A DNA stretch of 64,000 nt from an uncultured Chloroflexia bacterium (GTDB taxonomy: Bacteria; Chloroflexota; Anaerolineae; B4-G1; SLSP01), in NCBI GenBank assembly GCA_963751345.1, contig CAVVUS010000010.1:192001-256000 (forward strand), in the 5' to 3' direction. Shown here one piece after another: positions 24,798-55,886 of this stretch. The first letter of the stretch is position 1. The number at the start of each line of letters is the position of its first letter. The notes beneath the pieces were generated by a model. That model had not been told where the DNA came from and searched no databases. It saw only the letters and a program-made list of their open reading frames with translations. The position numbers and the translations under genes were made by a program.

Positions 24798-25670
24798 GTG
24801 CCCTTTCGAAATCTCACTCCGACCTGCTGGGTCGCACAAAGCCCCACCTTCGCGACGAATACCGGCCTTTTCATCGCCGACGATGAAGCGTACCTCGTAG
24901 ATCCCGGCATTGCGCCTGCCGAGCTCGATGCAATCGAGGCCTTTGTCGCGGCTCGAGGTGCAGCGGTGCGGGGCATCATATTGACCCACGCGCATTGGGA
25001 CCACCTCTTGGGTCCATCCAGGTTCCCATCCGCTACCGTTATCGCCCACGCGGCCTATGGGGCTGTCGTCCGACAGCATGGGGCGGACCTCCAACGTCAG
25101 GTGATGCATTGGCGATCCTCAATTGCAGGGCCGGGAAAGCTGCAGCCTTTCATACCCCCCAGGCCCGACATCACCTTCCAACAGCGCCTCACGGTGCATC
25201 TGGGCTCTCTTTCACTGACCGTGCTCCACGCGCCGGGGCATGCGCCGGATCACTGTGCGGTCTACGAGCCCTCAGCCGGGCTGTTGTGGGCCGGCGACAT
25301 GCTCAGTGACCTCGAAGTGCCGATGCCTATGTGGCGATTCTCTGCCTATCGTGCCACACTGCGCCACCTCTCGGAGTTGGACGTCAGGATTCTGGTGCCC
25401 GGGCACGGCACGCCAACCGGTGATCCGGACGTCATCTCTGGTCGTTTCAGTCAAGATCAGGCATACTTAGCGGCAGTGCAGACCTGTGTCTCGCGCGAGG
25501 TCGACCGCGCGGCATCTTTGGCTGAGGTTGTGGGGATGTGCTGCGGGGTTCCCTTTGCCCAGCCGGATGACTACCCCCACGCCCGCGAGTGGAATATCGA
25601 GCAAGCGTACCTGGAGGCGGGGGGGAAGGCTGCGGGTGTTGTGGGATGGGAAAAGGACTGGATAACGTAG
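24798..25670 (+). CDS. MBL-fold metallo-hydrolase
   Basis: VDPG, THAHWDH, PGHAPDH, AGDML, VPGHG. Confidence 0.9.
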   Translation: MPFRNLTPTCWVAQSPTFATNTGLFIADDEAYLVDPGIAPAELDAIEAFVAARGAAVRGIILTHAHWDHLLGPSRFPSATVIAHAAYGAVVRQHGADLQRQVMHWRSSIAGPGKLQPFIPPRPDITFQQRLTVHLGSLSLTVLHAPGHAPDHCAVYEPSAGLLWAGDMLSDLEVPMPMWRFSAYRATLRHLSELDVRILVPGHGTPTGDPDVISGRFSQDQAYLAAVQTCVSREVDRAASLAEVVGMCCGVPFAQPDDYPHAREWNIEQAYLEAGGKAAGVVGWEKDWIT

Positions 25671-25678
25671 GAGAGGGT

Positions 25679-26533
25679 ATGCTGACTTTGGAGCATGTGG
25701 AGGCGTATCGCACACGGACCTATCGTATGACCGATGAACTGCGAGTCAGGTCGAAGGAGGAGGCGATCCGGTTCGTCGACGCGCGTGGATATGTGATGTT
25801 CTGGCCGATCAAGGATATCGTGATGCCGAGCCTTTGGTCTGCGGTGGCGGGCGACCGCCCCGTCGCCGACGCTCACGATGATCCCGGTCACGTGACGTGG
25901 GGCTGGAAAGACTCGCTGCTCAGCGAACGGCGTTGGTACTATGGCAAGGTTCTCCGTCGGAGGGCGACCATCATCTCGCTTGGGGTTGCCCCCCTATTCT
26001 ACGCGCTCAGCGAGAATTTCGGCTCCCCGGAGGAGGACTATCTCGACCAGTACCGCGATGGCACCATGACGGCCGAGGCGAAGAGCATCTACGAGACCCT
26101 GCTGCAGGAGGGGCCGCTCAATTCCGTGGCGCTTCGCCGTGCCGCTTCGATGGCCGGCAACTCGTCGAGTTACCGGTTCAACAAGGGATTGGACGAGCTC
26201 CAGGCAGATTTCAAGGTGCTGCCGATCGGTGTTGCGCAGGCAGGTGCGTGGAACTACGCCTTCATCTACGAATGCGTCCACCGGTACTATCCGGAGCTGC
26301 TCGAACAAGCGCGGGCGTACAAGATCAGTCAGGCCCAGCAGCGACTGCTCAAGCTCTACCTGCGCTCCGTGGGGGCTGCCACCTTTGGGGACATCGTCAA
26401 GGTCTTCTGGTGGCCCAAGCGCGAGGTCGAGAGTGCCCTGGCCGCGCTCTCCGCGGAAGGGCAGGTGGTACGGGATCTGCATATCGACGGGCAGACGGGT
26501 GAGTGGGTGTCGCTTCCCGAGCTTGCATCCTAG
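25679..26533 (+). CDS. AlkZ/YcaQ-like winged-helix DNA-binding protein (putative crosslink-repair glycosylase family)
   Basis: PSLWSAV...TWGWKD...YYGK, winged-helix segment, YLRSVGAA C-terminal pattern. Confidence 0.65.
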   Translation: MLTLEHVEAYRTRTYRMTDELRVRSKEEAIRFVDARGYVMFWPIKDIVMPSLWSAVAGDRPVADAHDDPGHVTWGWKDSLLSERRWYYGKVLRRRATIISLGVAPLFYALSENFGSPEEDYLDQYRDGTMTAEAKSIYETLLQEGPLNSVALRRAASMAGNSSSYRFNKGLDELQADFKVLPIGVAQAGAWNYAFIYECVHRYYPELLEQARAYKISQAQQRLLKLYLRSVGAATFGDIVKVFWWPKREVESALAALSAEGQVVRDLHIDGQTGEWVSLPELAS

Positions 26534-26662
26534 TGGTCAGCTAAACTGATTCGTGGGGACTGTCATCCTGAACGAAGTGAAGGATCTATGCCTCGCAAGG
26601 GTAAGATCCTTCGCCTGCGGCTCAGGATGACGACTCTAGTCTTCAACCTAACTATCCACTAG
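26530..26662. mobile_element. MITE-like element: imperfect terminal inverted repeats enclosing REP-like palindrome copy 2
   Basis: CTAGTGGTCAGCTAAACTGA...TCAACCTAACTATCCACTAG (14/20 inverted match) around GTCATCCTGAACGAAGTGAAGGATCT...AGATCCTTCGCCTGCGGCTCAGGATGAC. Confidence 0.6.
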
Positions 26663-26678
26663 CGGTAAGGAGCTGGTC

Positions 26679-27138
26679 ATGGATGACAAGGATGTAGTAG
26701 AGCAGGTCGAACTGCCGGCATCGGAGCCCGTTGCCGGTCGCGGACTAGAGCCCACGGAGGCGCGGACCGCGCAAGGTGAATCTCGATGCGTTGTTCGGGG
26801 CGACGGCCCTGGTATGGATGGGCGTTGTGCTTCTGGCCTCCAACTTGGGCTATCTTGGCTGGTTCACGTACCAGGGCGGAAGGCTGGCGTGGGATCTACC
26901 GTTCCGACCGGCTGCGTGGCGGCTGGTCTTCCTGGGTGTAGCGGTGATTGTCGGGGCTGAGATCGCCGTGCGTTTGCTCGTTCCCCGATATCGCCGGAAT
27001 GTCCTGGGTTACACGATCCTCGTGATTGTCTTCGTCTCGCTTGGCCTGGGCTACGTCAATGTCATCTGGCCGGCGATCCTGATCGTGCTGGGCGCCGCGT
27101 TGATGCTGCGCAGACGACGCGGTAGGTCCGAGGAGTAG
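26679..27138 (+). CDS. Small multi-TM membrane protein; probable frameshift near 26770 or start at 26776
   Basis: RBS AAGGAG before ATG 26679; hydrophobic helices and WPAILIVLG in ORF 26776-27138. Confidence 0.6.
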
Positions 27139-27260
27139 CGGACCGACCTCGGTACTATCTGGGCGCTCTGGGCATCTATCCGGGAGAGACTATCATCATC
27201 ATTGACGGCGAAGGCGAGCCGGAACGATGAGCGCCGGACAGACGCGCCGTTTTTCGTTGC

Positions 27261-27288
27261 TTGACATCTGGCACGCTGCCCCTATAAT
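27261..27288 (+). promoter_or_regulatory. Consensus sigma70 promoter of the aspS-gatCAB leader
   Basis: TTGACA-16nt-TATAAT. Confidence 0.85.
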
Positions 27289-27347
27289 CTAGGCTAATGG
27301 ACTCGGTGGCAGCGAATCGTCCAATTCTCATAGGAGGCACGTGCTCG

Positions 27348-27425
27348 ATGTTGTTGTTGAATCAGTACCAGCAGATCAACGATAACGATAATCCCGGCGT
27401 GCGCCTGTGGGAGGGTCGAGCCTAG
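27348..27425 (+). CDS. Asn/Gln/Asp-rich attenuator leader peptide MLLLNQYQQINDNDNPGVRLWEGRA
   Basis: RBS AGGAGG at 27332-27337; 9 of codons 5-15 are N/Q/D; overlaps the antiterminator sequence. Confidence 0.8.
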   Translation: MLLLNQYQQINDNDNPGVRLWEGRA

Positions 27426-27450
27426 CCGCTCAGAAACTAGCCAAGGACCC

Positions 27451-27539
27451 AAGCCACGGGCGCACGCAGGTGCTCGTGGCTTTTTTCGTGCTTCAGTCTA
27501 GCGAAAGCCACGGACCGGCGTAAGAGCCCGTGGCTTTTT
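27451..27539 (+). terminator. Two tandem intrinsic terminators (attenuator) upstream of aspS
   Basis: AAGCCACGGGCGC...GTGCTCGTGGCTTTTTT (27451-27486) and AAAGCCACGG...CCGTGGCTTTTT (27504-27539). Confidence 0.85.
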
Positions 27540-27571
27540 GCATAACTCGGGCACAAGAGGGGGGATGTCGA

Positions 27572-29348
27572 ATGGAGAAACGGACGCATCGATGCGGGGC
27601 CTTGCGGTCGGAGCACATCGGTCAGCACGTCACGCTGATGGGGTGGGTGCGCACGCGACGTGATCATGGTTGGCTGATCTTCCTCGATCTATGGGATCGC
27701 GAGGGCGTGACCCAGATTGTCGCCGATCCCAACGATTCCGCCGATGCCCACGCGGTGGCTGGGGACCTCAGGGATGAGTATGTCATCGCCGTAAGCGGCG
27801 TGGTGCGCGCGCGACCACAGGGCACGGAGAACCCCAGCCTGGCCACCGGAGAGATCGAGGTGGTCGCCAACGCTATCGAGATCCTGAACGCCACGACGCC
27901 GCTCCCCTTTCCCGTCGAAGATGCGCCGAAGGTGGATGAGGTGGTACGTTACCGTTACCGCTACCTGGACCTTCGGCGTGAGGCGATGCAGCGGAACTTT
28001 CGGCTCCGCCATCGCGTGGTCAAGACGCTGCGTGATTTCCTGGACACAGAGGGCTTCCTGGAGGTTGAGACGCCGGTCTTGACCCGGAGCACGCCCGAGG
28101 GTGCCCGAGACTACCTGGTGCCCAGCAGGATTCATCCCGGTGAGTTCTACGCGTTGCCGCAGTCGCCCCAGCAGATGAAACAGTTGCTGATGGTCGCCGG
28201 CGTGGACCGCTACTATCAGGTGGCGCGCTGCTTTCGCGATGAGGACCTCCGGGCCGACCGCCAGCCCGAGTTCACGCAGTTGGACCTGGAGATGAGCTTT
28301 GTCGAGCAGGAGGACGTCCTTTCCATGGTCGAGGCGATGGTCCGTGAGATCGTCGCGACGGCGGCGCCCGACCGTCCTCTGGCGACGACGCCCTTCCTCC
28401 GGCTGACCTACGACGAGGCGATGGCGCGGTACGGGACGGACAAGCCCGATCTGCGTTTCGGCATGGCCTTCGTCGACTGCTCGGCGATTCTGTCAGAGAG
28501 TGAGGTGCGGATCTTCCGGGACGTCACCGCGGGGGGCGGGGCCGTCAAGGGATTCCGCGCTTCGGGGTACGGCGCGACCTCTGCGACGGAGCTGGAGACG
28601 CTGCAGACGTTGAGCAAGGAGTTGGGCGCCCAGGGCGTGATCTGGTTCCGCGTTCGGGACGGCGGGTTGGACGCTCCTGTTGCGCGCCATCTCAGCGCCG
28701 AGGAGCAGCGGGCGCTGATCGAGGCCTTCGACGCCGGGGATGGGGACCTGCTGCTGCTGGTGGCAGGTGCCCTCGACGTCGTCAACGGCGCGCTCGACGG
28801 GCTGCGTCGGGAAATGGGTCTACGTCTGGGTCTGATCGATTCGGGAGCCCTGGCCTTCGCCTGGGTGGTTGACTTTCCCGCTCTTCAAATGGGACGCAGA
28901 CAATCACCGTTGGGATTCGGAGCACCATCCGTTTACCAGCCCGCGACCGGAGGATCTTGCGACACTTGAGTCGGATCCGGGTGGGGCACGCGCCAGTTGC
29001 TACGATCTGGTCTGTAACGGTTGGGAACTCGGGTCGGGCTCGATCAGGATCCATCAGCGGGCGCTTCAGGAACGCGTGCTCAAGTTGTTGGCTTACACGC
29101 CCGAGGAGGCAGAGGCCAGCTTTGGTCACTTGATGGAGGCCTTCGAGTATGGCGCGCCGCCGCACGGTGGGTTCGCTGTGGGCATCGATCGCCTCGTCGC
29201 GATATTGGCCGGGACTGACACGATCCGGGATGTGATTGCCTTCCCGAAAACGCGTCAAGCCACCGACCTGACGATGCGCGCGCCGGCGCCCGTCACGGCT
29301 GCCCAACTGGAGGAAATCCACATCCGGATTGCAGGACGCCGCCGTTAG
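27572..29348 (+). CDS. aspS: Aspartate-tRNA ligase, probably non-discriminating; +1 frameshift at about 28875-28880
   Basis: [46 protein letters not shown]; continues in ORF 28869-29348 (HHPFT, GAPPHGG, GIDRL, VIAFPK). Confidence 0.95.
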
Positions 29349-29423
29349 GGGACAGCCCAAAGATCAAGTTAGCTGAGCACCAACGTGGCGGGAGGAAGGG
29401 CATTTAGGGACGAGGAGGTAGAG

Positions 29424-29747
29424 ATGACAACCCCTGACGAAGGGCACGTGATCGATCAAGCGTTGGTCGAGCACGTCGCTTTCCTGATTCGACTGGCGTT
29501 GACGGATGACGAAGTGGAGACCTTTACCGAGCAGTTGAGCACGATCGTGGGGTACTTCGATCGGCTGGCCGAGGTCGATGTGACCGACGTGCCACCGTAT
29601 CGCCAAGCTCAGATGGGACGTGCACGCCTCCGTGACGACGAGGTGAGGCCTTCGATGGCCCGCGAGGACTTCCTGGCAAATGCGCCACAACAACAGGATG
29701 GGTTTGTGCGTGTTCCCGTCGTCCTGGATGTTCCTGACGAAGGCTGA
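29424..29747 (+). CDS. gatC: Asp/Glu-tRNA amidotransferase subunit C
   Basis: VEHVAFLIRLAL, LAEVDVTDVPP, LRDDEV, LANAP...FVRVPVV; RBS GAGGAGG. Confidence 0.92.
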   Translation: MTTPDEGHVIDQALVEHVAFLIRLALTDDEVETFTEQLSTIVGYFDRLAEVDVTDVPPYRQAQMGRARLRDDEVRPSMAREDFLANAPQQQDGFVRVPVVLDVPDEG

Positions 29748-29756
29748 GGAGGCGCC

Positions 29757-31236
<1,480 letters not shown>

Positions 31237-31240
31237 CGCC

Positions 31241-32704
31241 ATGGCGAACGACACATACGAAGTAGTCATAGGGATGGAAATCCACGCCGAGCTGCGGACG
31301 GCCTCAAAGATGTTCTGCGGCTGCCCTGTGGTCGATACGACCGTAGCCGAGCCGAATACCGCCGTCTGCCCCGTTTGCACGGGGCTGCCGGGTGCGATGC
31401 CGGTTGTCAACAAGCGTGCCGTTGAGCAGGCGATGATGGTGGGGCTGGCGCTCAACTGCCGGATCAATGAGTTCACCAGCTTCGCCCGCAAGAACTACTT
31501 CTACCCCGACCTGCCCAAGGGATACCAGATCTCACAGTACGATCATCCCATCGCGACCGACGGCTGGCTCGAGATTCGGACCGATGACGGCGAAACGGTG
31601 CGGGTTGGGATCACGCGCGCGCATCATGGAGGAGGACACGGCCAAGAGCTTCCACCACGGAGCCGGTGGGTACACGCTGATCGACTTCAACCGGTCGAGT
31701 GTGCCGCTGCTCGAGATCGTCTCAGAGCCCGACATGCATTCGGTTGCTGCGGCTCACACCTATGCGACGAAGATCCGCGAGATCCTTCGCTACCTCGGCG
31801 TCAACACGGGTGACATGGAGAAGGGGGTGCTGCGCTTCGAAGCCAACGTCTCCGTGCGCCCACGTCGGCAGCGAGATCCTCGGCACCCGGACGGAGATCA
31901 AGAATCTGAACAGCTTCCGGGCACTGGTGCGGGCATGCGAGTACGAGATCGACCGCCAGATTGACGTCGTCGAATCCGGCGGCATCGTGGCGCAGGAGAC
32001 GCTGGGATGGGACGAGGCGCGCGGCGTAACCTATTCCCAGCGCAGCAAAGAACACGCCCACGACTATCGATACTTCCCGGAGCCGGATCTGCCTCCGCTC
32101 TACATCGATCGCGCCTGGGTTGAGGAAGTGGCGGCGACACTGCCCGAGCTGCCCGATGCAAAGTACGCTCGACTGGTCAAAGCCTATGGTCTCCCGGAGA
32201 ACGACGCCCGCATCCTAGTCGGCGACCAGACGCTCGCCGACTACTTTGAGGCAGCCGCCGGAATCTACGATGGAGAGGCCGCGTCGGTGAGCAAGTGGAT
32301 CGTGGGCGAATTGGCAGCGCTGATGAACCGGCAGGGAGTGGCCGTCGACGACATCCGCGTGACGCCGGAGGCGCTCTCGTCGCTGGTCGCGCTCGTCGAC
32401 AAGGGCACGATCAGCCAGAACAGCGCGAAGGACGTCTTGGGTGCCATGTTCGAGACCGGCAAAGCCGCCCAACGTCATCGTACAGGAGAAGGGACTTGTT
32501 CAGATCTCCGACCAGGATGCACTCTCGCAGGTCGTCGATCAGGTGCTGAGCGAGCACCCAGGTGAGGCGGCAGCATACCTCGAGGGCAAAGAAAGCCTGC
32601 TACAGTGGTTCATGGGCCAGGTGATGCGTGCGACGCGTGGCCGTGCCCAGCCGCAGACGGTCCTCGGACTGCTGCGCGAGAAACTCGAAGCCCGTCGGTC
32701 CTGA
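31241..32704 (+). CDS. gatB: Asp/Glu-tRNA amidotransferase subunit B; frameshifts at about 31620, 31860 and 32470
   Basis: [52 protein letters not shown] and [13 protein letters not shown], spread over four ORFs. Confidence 0.93.
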
Positions 32705-53317: not shown

Positions 53318-54856
53318 GTGAACGATGCACCCATCGCGCTCTACATCCACCCGTCGAAGCAGGCGGTGGAGCTCTACGAAACGCCGGTCCGCCGGAAATT
53401 CGGGCGCCCCTATTGGCTGCTGCCCATGGGCGTACCCGCGCTGATGAACCTGCTTCAGGACGAGGGCATCCCCGTCAGGGGGATCAACTACCCGATGAGG
53501 AAGCAGCTGGATCCCAACTTCAGTATTCGGCAGTGGTTGGAGAGTTACCGGCAGGCGAGGATAGTTCTGATCGATCTGCATTGGTATGAGCACTGCTATG
53601 GTGCGATCAAGATGGCCGAATTGGTGAAGGAGGTCCTGCCCGACGTCTGGGTGATCATTGGTGGCCTGACGGCGTCAGCATTTGCGGAGGAGATCATCCG
53701 TGATCACGCGGCGGTTGATTTCGTGATACGTGGCGATGCCGAACGCCCACTCCTGTCGCTGGCTCAGGCTCTCCTCTCCGAAGAACACCCCCGGGTCCTA
53801 CCGGACCTATCCGGAGTTCCGAACCTAACCTACCGCCGGAATGACCAGGTGGTGGAGAACCCCCGTACATATTGTGCCGCGCCCGAGGATTTTGCAGACT
53901 TCAACTTCATTGATCTGGACTGGCTGGAGCATGGGGAAGATTACTACACCTATGAATACCTGGTCATTGATATGAAGCTCGTCGAAGACGCCCGTCAGGG
54001 GAAAGATATCAGTAAGTACCGGGGCCGGTGGATCACGACGGCCCGTGGTTGTGACTTCGAGTGTTCCTACTGTGGCGGCGCGCGAAGTGCGCACAAGGCC
54101 ATCGCGGGGCGTAATGGCATCGTGCCCGTGCCGGTGGAGACGGTGGTCGACGAGATCAAGCACCTGCTGGAGCTCGACGTGATCCAGGTCTGTTTCTCCT
54201 ACGACCTTGCGGCTATGGGCGAGCGATACTGGAAAACGCTCTTCCGCACCCTTCGCAAGGAAGGCATCAAGATTGGCCTCTACAACGAGTTCTTCCAGCT
54301 CCCTCCGGCGGGTTTCCTCAAGGAGTTCACACGCACGGGCGATCCGGAGCATTCGTGCCTGGCGGTGAACCCCTATTCGGGCTCGGAGCGTGTGCGACGC
54401 CTCAATGGGAAACGCTACAACGATATCCAGCTTCTCAATGCCCTGGATGAGGTCAACTCCTACAATGTCCCGATCATTGTGTACTTCTCCCTCAACCTGC
54501 CGGGAGAGGATGAGGAGGTAGTGCAGCAGTCCGTCGGCCTTGCGCGAACTATCTACGACATGTACCCGCACTCCAAGGTGAAGATCCTCAATTCTTGCCA
54601 CACGGTCGAGCCTCTGTCGCCGATGGAGCAGCACCCTGGTCGCTACGGGGTGGACGTGAAGTGGCATACCTTCAAGGACTGGTACGAATACTGCCGAAAC
54701 ACACAGCTGGAGTTGCCCGGGGCGCGTACCGGCGAGTGGCGCGGGTTCGATCTGTTGCCGCCTGCTGAGCGCTCCGTGGAGGCGATGGCCGACGCCTGGG
54801 ATGCGGCGACCGAGGGGAACGAAGCCTGCTGGTGGCCGATCCCACCCCGTTGGTAA
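53318..54856 (+). CDS. B12-binding radical SAM protein, paralog of the upstream gene
   Basis: IDLHWYEH, IIGGLTAS, RGDAE, RGCDFECSYCGG; RBS AGGAGG before GTG 53318. Confidence 0.9.
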   Translation: MNDAPIALYIHPSKQAVELYETPVRRKFGRPYWLLPMGVPALMNLLQDEGIPVRGINYPMRKQLDPNFSIRQWLESYRQARIVLIDLHWYEHCYGAIKMAELVKEVLPDVWVIIGGLTASAFAEEIIRDHAAVDFVIRGDAERPLLSLAQALLSEEHPRVLPDLSGVPNLTYRRNDQVVENPRTYCAAPEDFADFNFIDLDWLEHGEDYYTYEYLVIDMKLVEDARQGKDISKYRGRWITTARGCDFECSYCGGARSAHKAIAGRNGIVPVPVETVVDEIKHLLELDVIQVCFSYDLAAMGERYWKTLFRTLRKEGIKIGLYNEFFQLPPAGFLKEFTRTGDPEHSCLAVNPYSGSERVRRLNGKRYNDIQLLNALDEVNSYNVPIIVYFSLNLPGEDEEVVQQSVGLARTIYDMYPHSKVKILNSCHTVEPLSPMEQHPGRYGVDVKWHTFKDWYEYCRNTQLELPGARTGEWRGFDLLPPAERSVEAMADAWDAATEGNEACWWPIPPRW

Positions 54857-54863
54857 GCCGGCG

Positions 54864-55886
54864 ATGGGAAGACGCCTCCCCTTCCGGTATGTGCTGACCC
54901 GCATCTTCTACCTCATTGCCGTGGTGTGGGTCGCTGCCACCGTCAACTTCGTCCTGCCGCGGCTCGCCGCTCGCGATCCGGTGCTGGAGCATTTCAGCAA
55001 GCTGCAGGCCAGTGTGGGGAGCAGGCAGGGCGATTTGGTCTCCGAAGCCCTGGATAGCTACCGGCAGTGGGCCGGACTCAACCAGCCGCTCTTGCGGCAG
55101 TACGTTACATATCTGAATAACATGCTTCGGATGGACTTCGGCCTATCGTTCACCCGATTTCGTCCGGTCATCGATATCGTCGGTTACGCACTGCCCTGGA
55201 CCATTGGGCTTTTGGGCACCACGACCCTCTTCTCCTTTGTGCTGGGCACCGTGCTGGGAGCGGCCGCCGCCTGGCGACGCTCGGCACGCTTGCTGAATAT
55301 CACCGTGTCTTTCCTGATGGTGCTGGCCGTGATCCCGCCCTTTGTCATCGCCCTGGTTTTGGCCTACGTCCTCGCGTTCCGTTTGAAACTTTTCCCCATT
55401 GCCGGCGTCTTCACGCCTGGGCGCATCACAAATCTCCTCGACGTGGAGTGGTGGCTTGACGTAATCCACCATGCCGCTATCCCCGCCATATCCCTCATGT
55501 TGGGGACGGCGGGAACCTGGGCGATGGGCATGCGGGGGATGACCATCACCACGTTAGGAAGTGACTTTCTGCTCTTCGCGGAGGCCAAGGGGTTGAGACG
55601 GCGGCGACTGCTGCTGGGGTATGCGATTCGCAATGTATTGCTGCCCCAGATCACGTCCCTGGCGATGTCGCTGGGCACGCTTGTGGCGAGTGCCACCATC
55701 GTCGAGATGCTATTCGGTTATCCCGGCGTAGGCAGCGTACTCGAGAATGCAGTGGTTTCGTTCGACTACAATTTGATCCAGGGCTGTATCTTCTTCTTGA
55801 TCGTCGCGATCGGCATCGCGACGTTCGTCATCGATCTATCGTATCCTTTGCTGGACCCCCGAATCACTTACGGCAAGGCGATGTAG
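54864..55886 (+). CDS. Stand-alone DppB/OppB-family ABC permease
   Basis: NFVLPRL...DP, GLNQPLLRQY, FAEAKGL, VEMLFGYPGVG, YPLLDPRI. Confidence 0.9.
   Translation: MGRRLPFRYVLTRIFYLIAVVWVAATVNFVLPRLAARDPVLEHFSKLQASVGSRQGDLVSEALDSYRQWAGLNQPLLRQYVTYLNNMLRMDFGLSFTRFRPVIDIVGYALPWTIGLLGTTTLFSFVLGTVLGAAAAWRRSARLLNITVSFLMVLAVIPPFVIALVLAYVLAFRLKLFPIAGVFTPGRITNLLDVEWWLDVIHHAAIPAISLMLGTAGTWAMGMRGMTITTLGSDFLLFAEAKGLRRRRLLLGYAIRNVLLPQITSLAMSLGTLVASATIVEMLFGYPGVGSVLENAVVSFDYNLIQGCIFFLIVAIGIATFVIDLSYPLLDPRITYGKAM

Follow-up and report, generated by a model that had tools for sequence, protein, structure and literature searches.

The 64,000-nucleotide (nt) window analyzed here, a stretch of the genome of an uncultured Chloroflexia bacterium, carries an aspS gene (paralog A, with its start codon, an ATG, at 27572) followed by gatC, gatA, and gatB (Table 1). 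Between a sigma-70-type promoter and aspS lies a leader that contains a short upstream open reading frame (uORF), two terminators, and a potential antiterminator, and it is this leader, a candidate leader-peptide attenuator of a tRNA-dependent amidation operon, that is described here. The leaders of related genomes have a comparable promoter at the equivalent relative position.

A first-pass annotation, made from the letters of the window alone, had proposed an attenuator in which the leader peptide senses Asn, Gln, and Asp, and all the parts that it listed are present, with minor corrections to coordinates. These are a consensus promoter (12/12 matches, 16-nt spacer), a ribosome-binding site followed by a 25-codon ORF in which nine of codons 5-15 specify Asn, Gln, or Asp, and two U-tailed terminators, whose hairpins fold at -22.9 and -17.2 kcal/mol, respectively. 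The second of these was missed by a simple terminator scanner because its loop exceeds 8 nt. The long pairing suggested between the uORF and the first terminator also proved correct: the outer helix of the antiterminator comprises 14 bp with one G-U pair (27397-27410 with 27454-27467), and an inner helix (27413-27417 with 27446-27450) extends it by 5 bp to a total of 19 bp. Region 3, the 3′ strand of this structure, also supplies terminator 1 with its 5′ arm and loop. The complete antiterminator hairpin reaches -41.6 kcal/mol versus -22.9 kcal/mol for terminator 1. The whole leader folds more stably than 200/200 shuffled versions of it (z = -3.7). One contig of DNA run X5 spans positions 27286-27643, and none of the differences listed for it falls within 27397-27500.

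Table 1 Coordinates of the leader, the operon, and related leaders (positions are those of the window unless another contig is named).
Feature	Position	Strand	Details
Sigma-70-type promoter	27261-27288	+	-35 box 27261-27266; -10 box 27283-27288; spacer 16 nt; 12/12 consensus matches
Region 1, predicted anti-antiterminator	27324-27337	+	Overlaps the ribosome-binding site; possible pairing partner is region 2, 3′ half
Ribosome-binding site of the uORF	27332-27337	+	
Leader ORF (uORF)	27348-27425	+	25 codons + TAG; ATG 27348; TAG 27423-27425
Control codons 5-15	27360-27392	+	Asn x4, Gln x3, Asp x2
Region 2, antiterminator 5′ strand within the uORF	27397-27417	+	Outer arm 27397-27410; inner arm 27413-27417
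Region 3, antiterminator 3′ strand	27446-27467	+	Inner arm 27446-27450; outer arm 27454-27467
Terminator 1	27451-27486	+	Stem 27451-27482, 13 pairs; six U, run 27481-27486
Terminator 2, near-copy of terminator 1	27503-27539	+	Hairpin 27503-27537; five U at 27535-27539
aspS paralog A	27572-29348	+	Bacterial-type AspRS with GAD domain; Pfam tRNA-synt_2, GAD, and OB anticodon domain over two frames
gatC	29385-29747	+	Pfam GatC, 1.3e-22
gatA	29757-31265	+	Pfam Amidase, 1.2e-154; sole gatA of the genome
gatB	31241-32704	+	Pfam GatB_N and GatB_Yqey, in pieces
asnA cassette of a sister genus (genome G022, contig L240)	65-200		uORF 126-200; asnA 439-1479
Leader of the second GluRS (GluRS2), contig C44 of this genome; also on L153 and L154	~54860-54932	-	5′ of gene 53474-54769

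Chance is not the source of the codon run in the uORF. With the proteome frequencies of the three residues (Asn 2.2%, Gln 3.7%, and Asp 6.1%), the probability of finding at least nine of them among 11 codons is 2.3e-7. Among the 51,540 ATG-initiated ORFs of 10-45 codons in the genome, a score of 9/11 was reached solely by the uORF and its own in-frame extension, the runners-up being a single ORF at 8/11 and six at 7/11.

The leader belongs to a recurrent cassette, in which a promoter, a Shine-Dalgarno (SD) sequence, and an Asn-rich ORF come with regions 2 and 3 and with terminator 1, in most cases joined by terminator 2. This cassette precedes paralog-A aspS in 18 of the 19 genus genomes with a readable upstream region, the 19th (G016) ending at a contig edge, and gatC and gatA lie directly 3′ of paralog A in the window as well as in all 12 of the relatives' loci with downstream sequence. 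An exact-pattern scan of species representatives gave 14 loci, two of them new and 12 already in our set. A degenerate-pattern scan of metagenomes gave 54 stretches, 19 of which were true cassettes, the rest being chance matches in GC-rich DNA. Downstream of these 19 metagenome cassettes, we found aspS in 16 cases and asnA in one, the downstream sequence being cut off in the remaining two.

Codon content was then compared over 23 distinct leaders. Asn accounts for 28.5% of the control residues, versus 2.2% of the proteome (a 13-fold enrichment), and Gln for 16.1% versus 3.7%. Asp, at 4.8% versus 6.1% of the proteome, is not enriched. Every leader has at least three Asn codons (23/23) and nearly every one has at least one Gln codon (21/23); Asp is present in 14/23 and lacking in 9/23. 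Both Asn codons occur at aligned leader positions. As an input, Asn is therefore universal and Gln frequent, in second place; the pair of Asp codons found in this genome is incidental and not conserved. The uORF and its Asn and Gln enrichment are thus retained in related leaders, as the first-pass annotation would have it, and the Asn and Gln parts of its three-input sensor are supported; the Asp part is not. With Asp at background, the sensor would therefore read Asn first and Gln second.

The comparison of leaders also bears out the antiterminator, for which covarying pairs had been suggested as a check. Over 33 distinct leaders, the antiterminator strands pair in 91.1% of the alignment cells, versus 24-54% when one strand is slid against the other. 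One outer pair shows a clean double change, being U-A in 25 rows, C-G in eight, and unpaired in none, and two genomes have G-C in place of the lone G-U pair. Among the inner pairs, one varies between A-U (8 rows), G-C (7), and G-U (4). Changes on both sides were seen for three pairs in all, and the observed covariation score was reached by 0/500 shuffles. At three pairs, the degenerate pattern used for the metagenome scan fixed neither base, and pairing was thus not selected for there. Terminator 1 is paired in 91.7% of cells (19 leaders); terminator 2 was found in most relatives and is missing in one (L006).

In region 2, third codon positions are otherwise fixed, and amino-acid changes coincide with base changes that preserve a pair, while the part of region 3 that is mere loop in terminator 1 is both conserved and complementary to region 2. 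The constraint therefore acts on RNA pairing and not on the peptide. The last ten residues of the leader peptide are highly conserved, as could be expected of a nascent arrest peptide acting in the exit tunnel, with RNA pairing secondary. This explanation is extremely improbable: the third codon positions in that part are invariant in the 33 leaders, base changes alter the amino acid while the pair is kept or improved, and the partner strand (27454-27467) is non-coding yet equally conserved.

A further pairing would involve region 1, at the ribosome-binding site of the uORF, whose duplex with 27395-27420 was computed at -28.6 kcal/mol. With the consensus register, pairing reaches 88.7% of cells in the 19 leaders versus 38-56% with one strand slid, and the region 1/region 2 helix is put forward here as a plausible proposal. 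A register derived from the fold of this genome alone was rejected, since only 33.7% of cells pair in it.

No T-box and no leader family (His, Leu, Thr, Trp, Phe, or other) was found in an Rfam scan of positions 26500-28500 with E values up to 10. The sole match, IRES_Bip (12.3 bits, E 0.54), lies at 27068-27108, 5′ of the promoter, and is far under its gathering score. A scan of 11 related loci with E values up to 0.1 likewise gave no T-box and no leader family. These results agree with the first-pass annotation, which had read the element as a leader-peptide attenuator and not as a T-box.

The arms could also be the binding site of a ligand, a tRNA, or a protein, forming a switch that works by RNA alone and in which the ORF is incidental. 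Regions 2 and 3 are indeed near-invariant, beyond what base pairing demands, among loci whose AspRS proteins are 59-95% identical. We nevertheless consider such a switch very unlikely. No Rfam family matches the leader, and the nucleotides between the ATG and region 2 are poorly conserved, yet the SD sequence, the ATG, and the Asn/Gln-rich frame are always kept. The 13-fold enrichment of Asn over the proteome speaks against it as well, as do unrelated leaders elsewhere that carry codons matched to the synthetase they precede, namely Asp/Asn before aspS and Glu/Gln before GluRS2 (see below).

Most genomes of the genus have two aspS paralogs, which makes the second of them a natural control. Paralog-B aspS has no leader and no terminator in 15/15 loci (L057-L071), only a promoter near the start of the gene. 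This promoter is conserved and has an extended -10 box ~30-40 nt before the start codon; such a promoter without a leader would fit constitutive expression. Paralog B was not found in the assembly studied here. In a tree of AspRS sequences, unrooted and built without an outgroup, paralog A, paralog B, and the genes of two sister families form three clades. Leaders were likewise absent upstream of gatC in other genera of the order (14/14 loci, two of them with <100 nt upstream) and upstream of asnS and glnS in this genome.

Two further explanations do not involve amino-acid sensing. The terminators might merely end or insulate upstream transcription, in keeping with a small membrane-protein gene that ends ~120 nt 5′ of the promoter, or AspRS or GatCAB might regulate its own synthesis by binding its leader, in the way that the threonyl-tRNA synthetase gene thrS of E. 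coli is controlled by the synthetase (PMC2965389, in part). Both are very unlikely here, as the terminators lie 3′ of a promoter with a full consensus match and accompany aspS or asnA irrespective of the genes on the 5′ side. The leader showed no tRNA-like fold, and the codon bias would be left unexplained by either.

To place the operon in the physiology of the cell, we surveyed the enzymes that supply asparagine and its tRNA. AsnRS and GlnRS were detected above their curated cut-offs in this genome, and nearly all relatives in the genus likewise have them. Asn-tRNA and Gln-tRNA therefore have sources other than this operon and, with Asp not enriched in the leaders either, the first-pass idea that the control codons match exactly the three aminoacyl-tRNAs made by the operon is not supported in that form. 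AsnA was not found in this genome (93.4% complete), nor was a full AsnB, for which there is only a fragment scoring 141.9 bits against a cut-off of 267.1 bits. The tRNA-Asn of this genome has a U1-A72 pair and its tRNA-Asp a G1-C72 pair; U1-A72 has been named as a mark of GatCAB-using genomes (PMC4206432, in part). The genome thus combines GatCAB, a U1-A72 tRNA-Asn, and no AsnA or AsnB that could be found, the combination by which tRNA-dependent asparagine biosynthesis is recognized. Given that AsnA and a complete AsnB both went undetected, the operon is likely a tRNA-dependent asparagine-biosynthesis operon of the Thermus/Deinococcus kind. The paralog-A AspRS is probably non-discriminating.

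The leader is most likely a ribosome-mediated transcription attenuator with Asn-tRNA(Asn) as its main input and Gln-tRNA(Gln) as a secondary one, controlling a second, probably non-discriminating AspRS together with the sole GatCAB for tRNA-dependent Asn formation. All the features that define a leader-peptide attenuator at the sequence level are present; the element itself is solidly supported, its mechanism moderately.

In the proposed mechanism, the uORF would be translated while RNA polymerase, started at the consensus promoter, proceeds along the leader. With charged tRNA in ample supply, the ribosome would pass codons 16-25 and cover region 2 as region 3 emerges, so that region 3 would pair with region 4 and form terminator 1, with terminator 2 as a backup. 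With Asn- or Gln-charged tRNA scarce, the ribosome would stall at codons 5-13 and leave region 2 free to form the 19-bp antiterminator with region 3, allowing the polymerase to enter aspS-gatCAB. In the absence of translation, region 1 at the ribosome-binding site would sequester region 2 and termination would be favored. These steps were examined with a thermodynamic model in which the ribosome covers 16 nt ahead of the P site and the downstream RNA is folded as far as the terminator 1 U tract. In this model, an A site at any of codons 5-13 leaves the downstream RNA to fold as the antiterminator, and an A site at codon 14 through the stop codon leaves it to fold as terminator 1, suggesting that ribosome position may be coupled to folding. 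The Gln codons could sense Gln-tRNA(Gln) as a product of GatCAB, or they could sense a shortage of glutamine as the amide donor of GatCAB. For the former, a GluRS that mischarges tRNA would be required despite the presence of GlnRS.

Several observations weigh against an attenuator of this kind or complicate it. In the model, a stall at control codons 14-15 already covers part of region 2 and favors termination, so only the earlier control codons can act as proposed. Equilibrium folds are also ambiguous on how terminator 2 would be bypassed: when the 3′ arm of terminator 1 pairs with the terminator 2 5′ arm, the duplex has -19.6 kcal/mol versus -17.2 kcal/mol for terminator 2, and the folds go either way. 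On the comparative side, 10 of the 14 outer antiterminator pairs are invariant in the 33 leaders and so uninformative, the outer-helix covariation amounts to a single evolutionary event in eight related rows, and the region 1/region 2 pairing is not above column shuffles in the 19 leaders. GlnRS occurs in 20/21 genus relatives, which makes the role of the Gln codons debatable. A full AsnB is encoded in 8/22 genus genomes (counting the entry for this genome, G000) and AsnA in 4/21 genus relatives, so that some members of the genus have a route to Asn besides the operon.

The last of these points is that the aspS and gatB frames are broken in this assembly. Compared with G002, the closest relative (95% identical), a short run of C near 28877 is longer by one base in aspS, and pairwise alignment placed three single-base insertions in gatB, near 31624, 31864, and 32465. 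Because these aspS and gatCAB genes are the sole copies in the assembly (93.4% complete, 49 contigs), the four single-base insertions are probably assembly errors. In the contigs of four DNA runs, no contig extended over any of these sites. Relatives also have a single gatA per genome.

The cassette is not confined to aspS. In a genome of a sister genus (G022), the same cassette stands before asnA, with a promoter matching the consensus at 11/12 positions, a 24-codon Asn-rich uORF, and alternative hairpins of -37.5 and -20.7 kcal/mol; the aspS and gatC genes of this genome have no leader. A metagenome contig (L227) carries a second case, with the cassette at ~1534-1760 and asnA at 1810-2913 (AsnA domain, E = 7.6e-104). 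Its uORF has no in-frame ATG and its start is ambiguous. In both, an Asn-rich ORF with no or one Gln codon accompanies the antiterminator/terminator alternative. The presence of the cassette before asnA points to asparagine supply as the conserved logic. As AsnA uses ammonia, asnA leaders without Gln codons fit both of the ideas on Gln codons given above.

A different, GC-rich leader that looks like a classical attenuator precedes a lone aspS in the two sister families, with a cluster of Asp/Asn codons in a short ORF in 12/12 full upstream regions. Nine of these 12 pass an automated rule; the other three (L019, L022, and L023) fail only its U-tract rule and were judged by eye. The 12 leaders lie on L015-L023, L025, L026, and L029, and several of their ORFs start a few bases from the -10 box. 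A class-wide survey of aspS upstream regions, covering 60 of the 95 matches outside G000, G026, and G028, gave only two regions (2/60) in which an Asp/Asn leader was clear and its terminator strong, both in one family (L094 and L118). Three-codon Asp/Asn clusters are at background level, a score of at least 3 being reached by 12/60 forward regions versus 10/60 reverse-strand controls; as such clusters are indistinct from background, the survey may undercount.

A second GluRS paralog occurs in 3/41 genomes, this one included, and a Glu/Gln leader with a terminator precedes it in 3/3. The leader ORFs have 21-23 codons and are rich in Gln and Glu. The -10 box of GluRS2 ends 6 nt before the leader ATG, so that the transcript may be leaderless and the short ORF translated from its very 5′ end. 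No leader precedes the housekeeping GluRS gene (contig C22), and in a genome-wide scan for leader peptides with terminators, only the GluRS2 leader looked real among 22 candidates. Across these cases, leader codon content tracks the synthetase or pathway controlled, which is hard to explain by chance or by an RNA switch independent of translation.

These leaders could tentatively be read as parts of one regulon written in the codons of indirect aminoacylation, although we hold this to be somewhat less than an even bet. The Asn cassette would have moved between asnA and aspS-gatCAB, with Gln codons added only where it controls GatCAB, Asp/Asn leaders would sit on a lone, presumably non-discriminating AspRS, and Glu/Gln leaders on the second GluRS. 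If this were true, GatCAB would still make Gln-tRNA(Gln) in cells that own GlnRS, leader codons could be used to predict non-discriminating synthetase paralogs, and one antiterminator would open both terminators as their arms change partners in succession (region 4 with region 5).

Like the classical attenuators of trp, his, leu, thr, ilv, and pheA, the element has a short ORF with codons for the controlled amino acid, and an intrinsic terminator that excludes, and is excluded by, an antiterminator; as in those attenuators, the position of the ribosome would decide whether the 5′ strand of the antiterminator is free or masked. It differs from them in the residues that it would sense, Asn and Gln, and in its target, a tRNA-dependent amidation operon or asnA. 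The 5′ strand of its antiterminator lies inside the ORF, 3′ of the control codons, and the proposed anti-antiterminator partner is the ribosome-binding-site region and not a segment of the ORF. It also has two near-identical tandem terminators and no match to an Rfam leader family. Synthetase genes are under leader-peptide attenuation in the pheST operon of E. coli. A candidate attenuator of a synthetase gene has also been reported for trpS2 of Streptomyces avermitilis (PMC1262725, in part).

The nearest counterpart by target is found in Clostridium acetobutylicum, where a T-box controls tRNA-dependent amidation genes (Saad et al. 2012, 2013, as cited in parts of PMC4206432 and PMC4574755). 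As far as those parts describe it, the target is the same, extra AspRS and GatCAB genes for making Asn on tRNA, and a dual tRNA specificity is likewise tied to an operon serving more than one pathway. The T-box, however, binds uncharged tRNA directly, whereas the element described here has no T-box features and is predicted to read charging via the translating ribosome. In its gene content, the genome resembles the Thermus thermophilus, Deinococcus radiodurans, and Bdellovibrio type of tRNA-dependent asparagine biosynthesis (PMC4206432, in part): AsnRS and GlnRS occur alongside GatCAB, with a second AspRS, no asparagine synthetase found, and a U1-A72 tRNA-Asn. Within what that source gives, two differences appear: the extra AspRS is here bacterial-type with a GAD domain and not archaeal-type, and its gene forms one operon with gatCAB under an attenuator.

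Full-text literature searches found no Asn/Gln leader peptide before aspS, gatCAB, or asnA; the synthetase-attenuator survey of Lopatovskaya et al. 2010 might bear on this claim. Asn and Gln would be new as sensed amino acids. Regulation of the amidation pathway is known mainly from the one Clostridium T-box case, and here it apparently follows a ribosome-stalling logic, in Chloroflexota, a phylum in which attenuators are hardly charted. The leader present on paralog A and absent from paralog B, the asnA cassette, and the codon matching also amount to natural experiments that predict non-discriminating AspRS and GluRS paralogs, and that predict GatCAB in GlnRS-bearing cells to be mainly asparagine-making.

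A few minor features were noted around these loci. On the 5′ side of the leader, the window carries a gene for an AlkZ-related DNA glycosylase (25589-26533) and the gene for the small membrane protein mentioned above (26776-27138), which has a weak, sub-cut-off Pfam match to LiaF-TM; neither gene is kept beside the leader in relatives. Among the chance matches of the metagenome scan, those in L185, L201, L206, L209, L222, and L224 correspond to a repeated GC-rich palindromic element with conserved flanks, found on several contigs of one metagenome. In a sister-family genome, aspS is closely followed by a gene for 6S RNA (Rfam RF00013, 63.6 bits), at positions 3422-3599 of L029.

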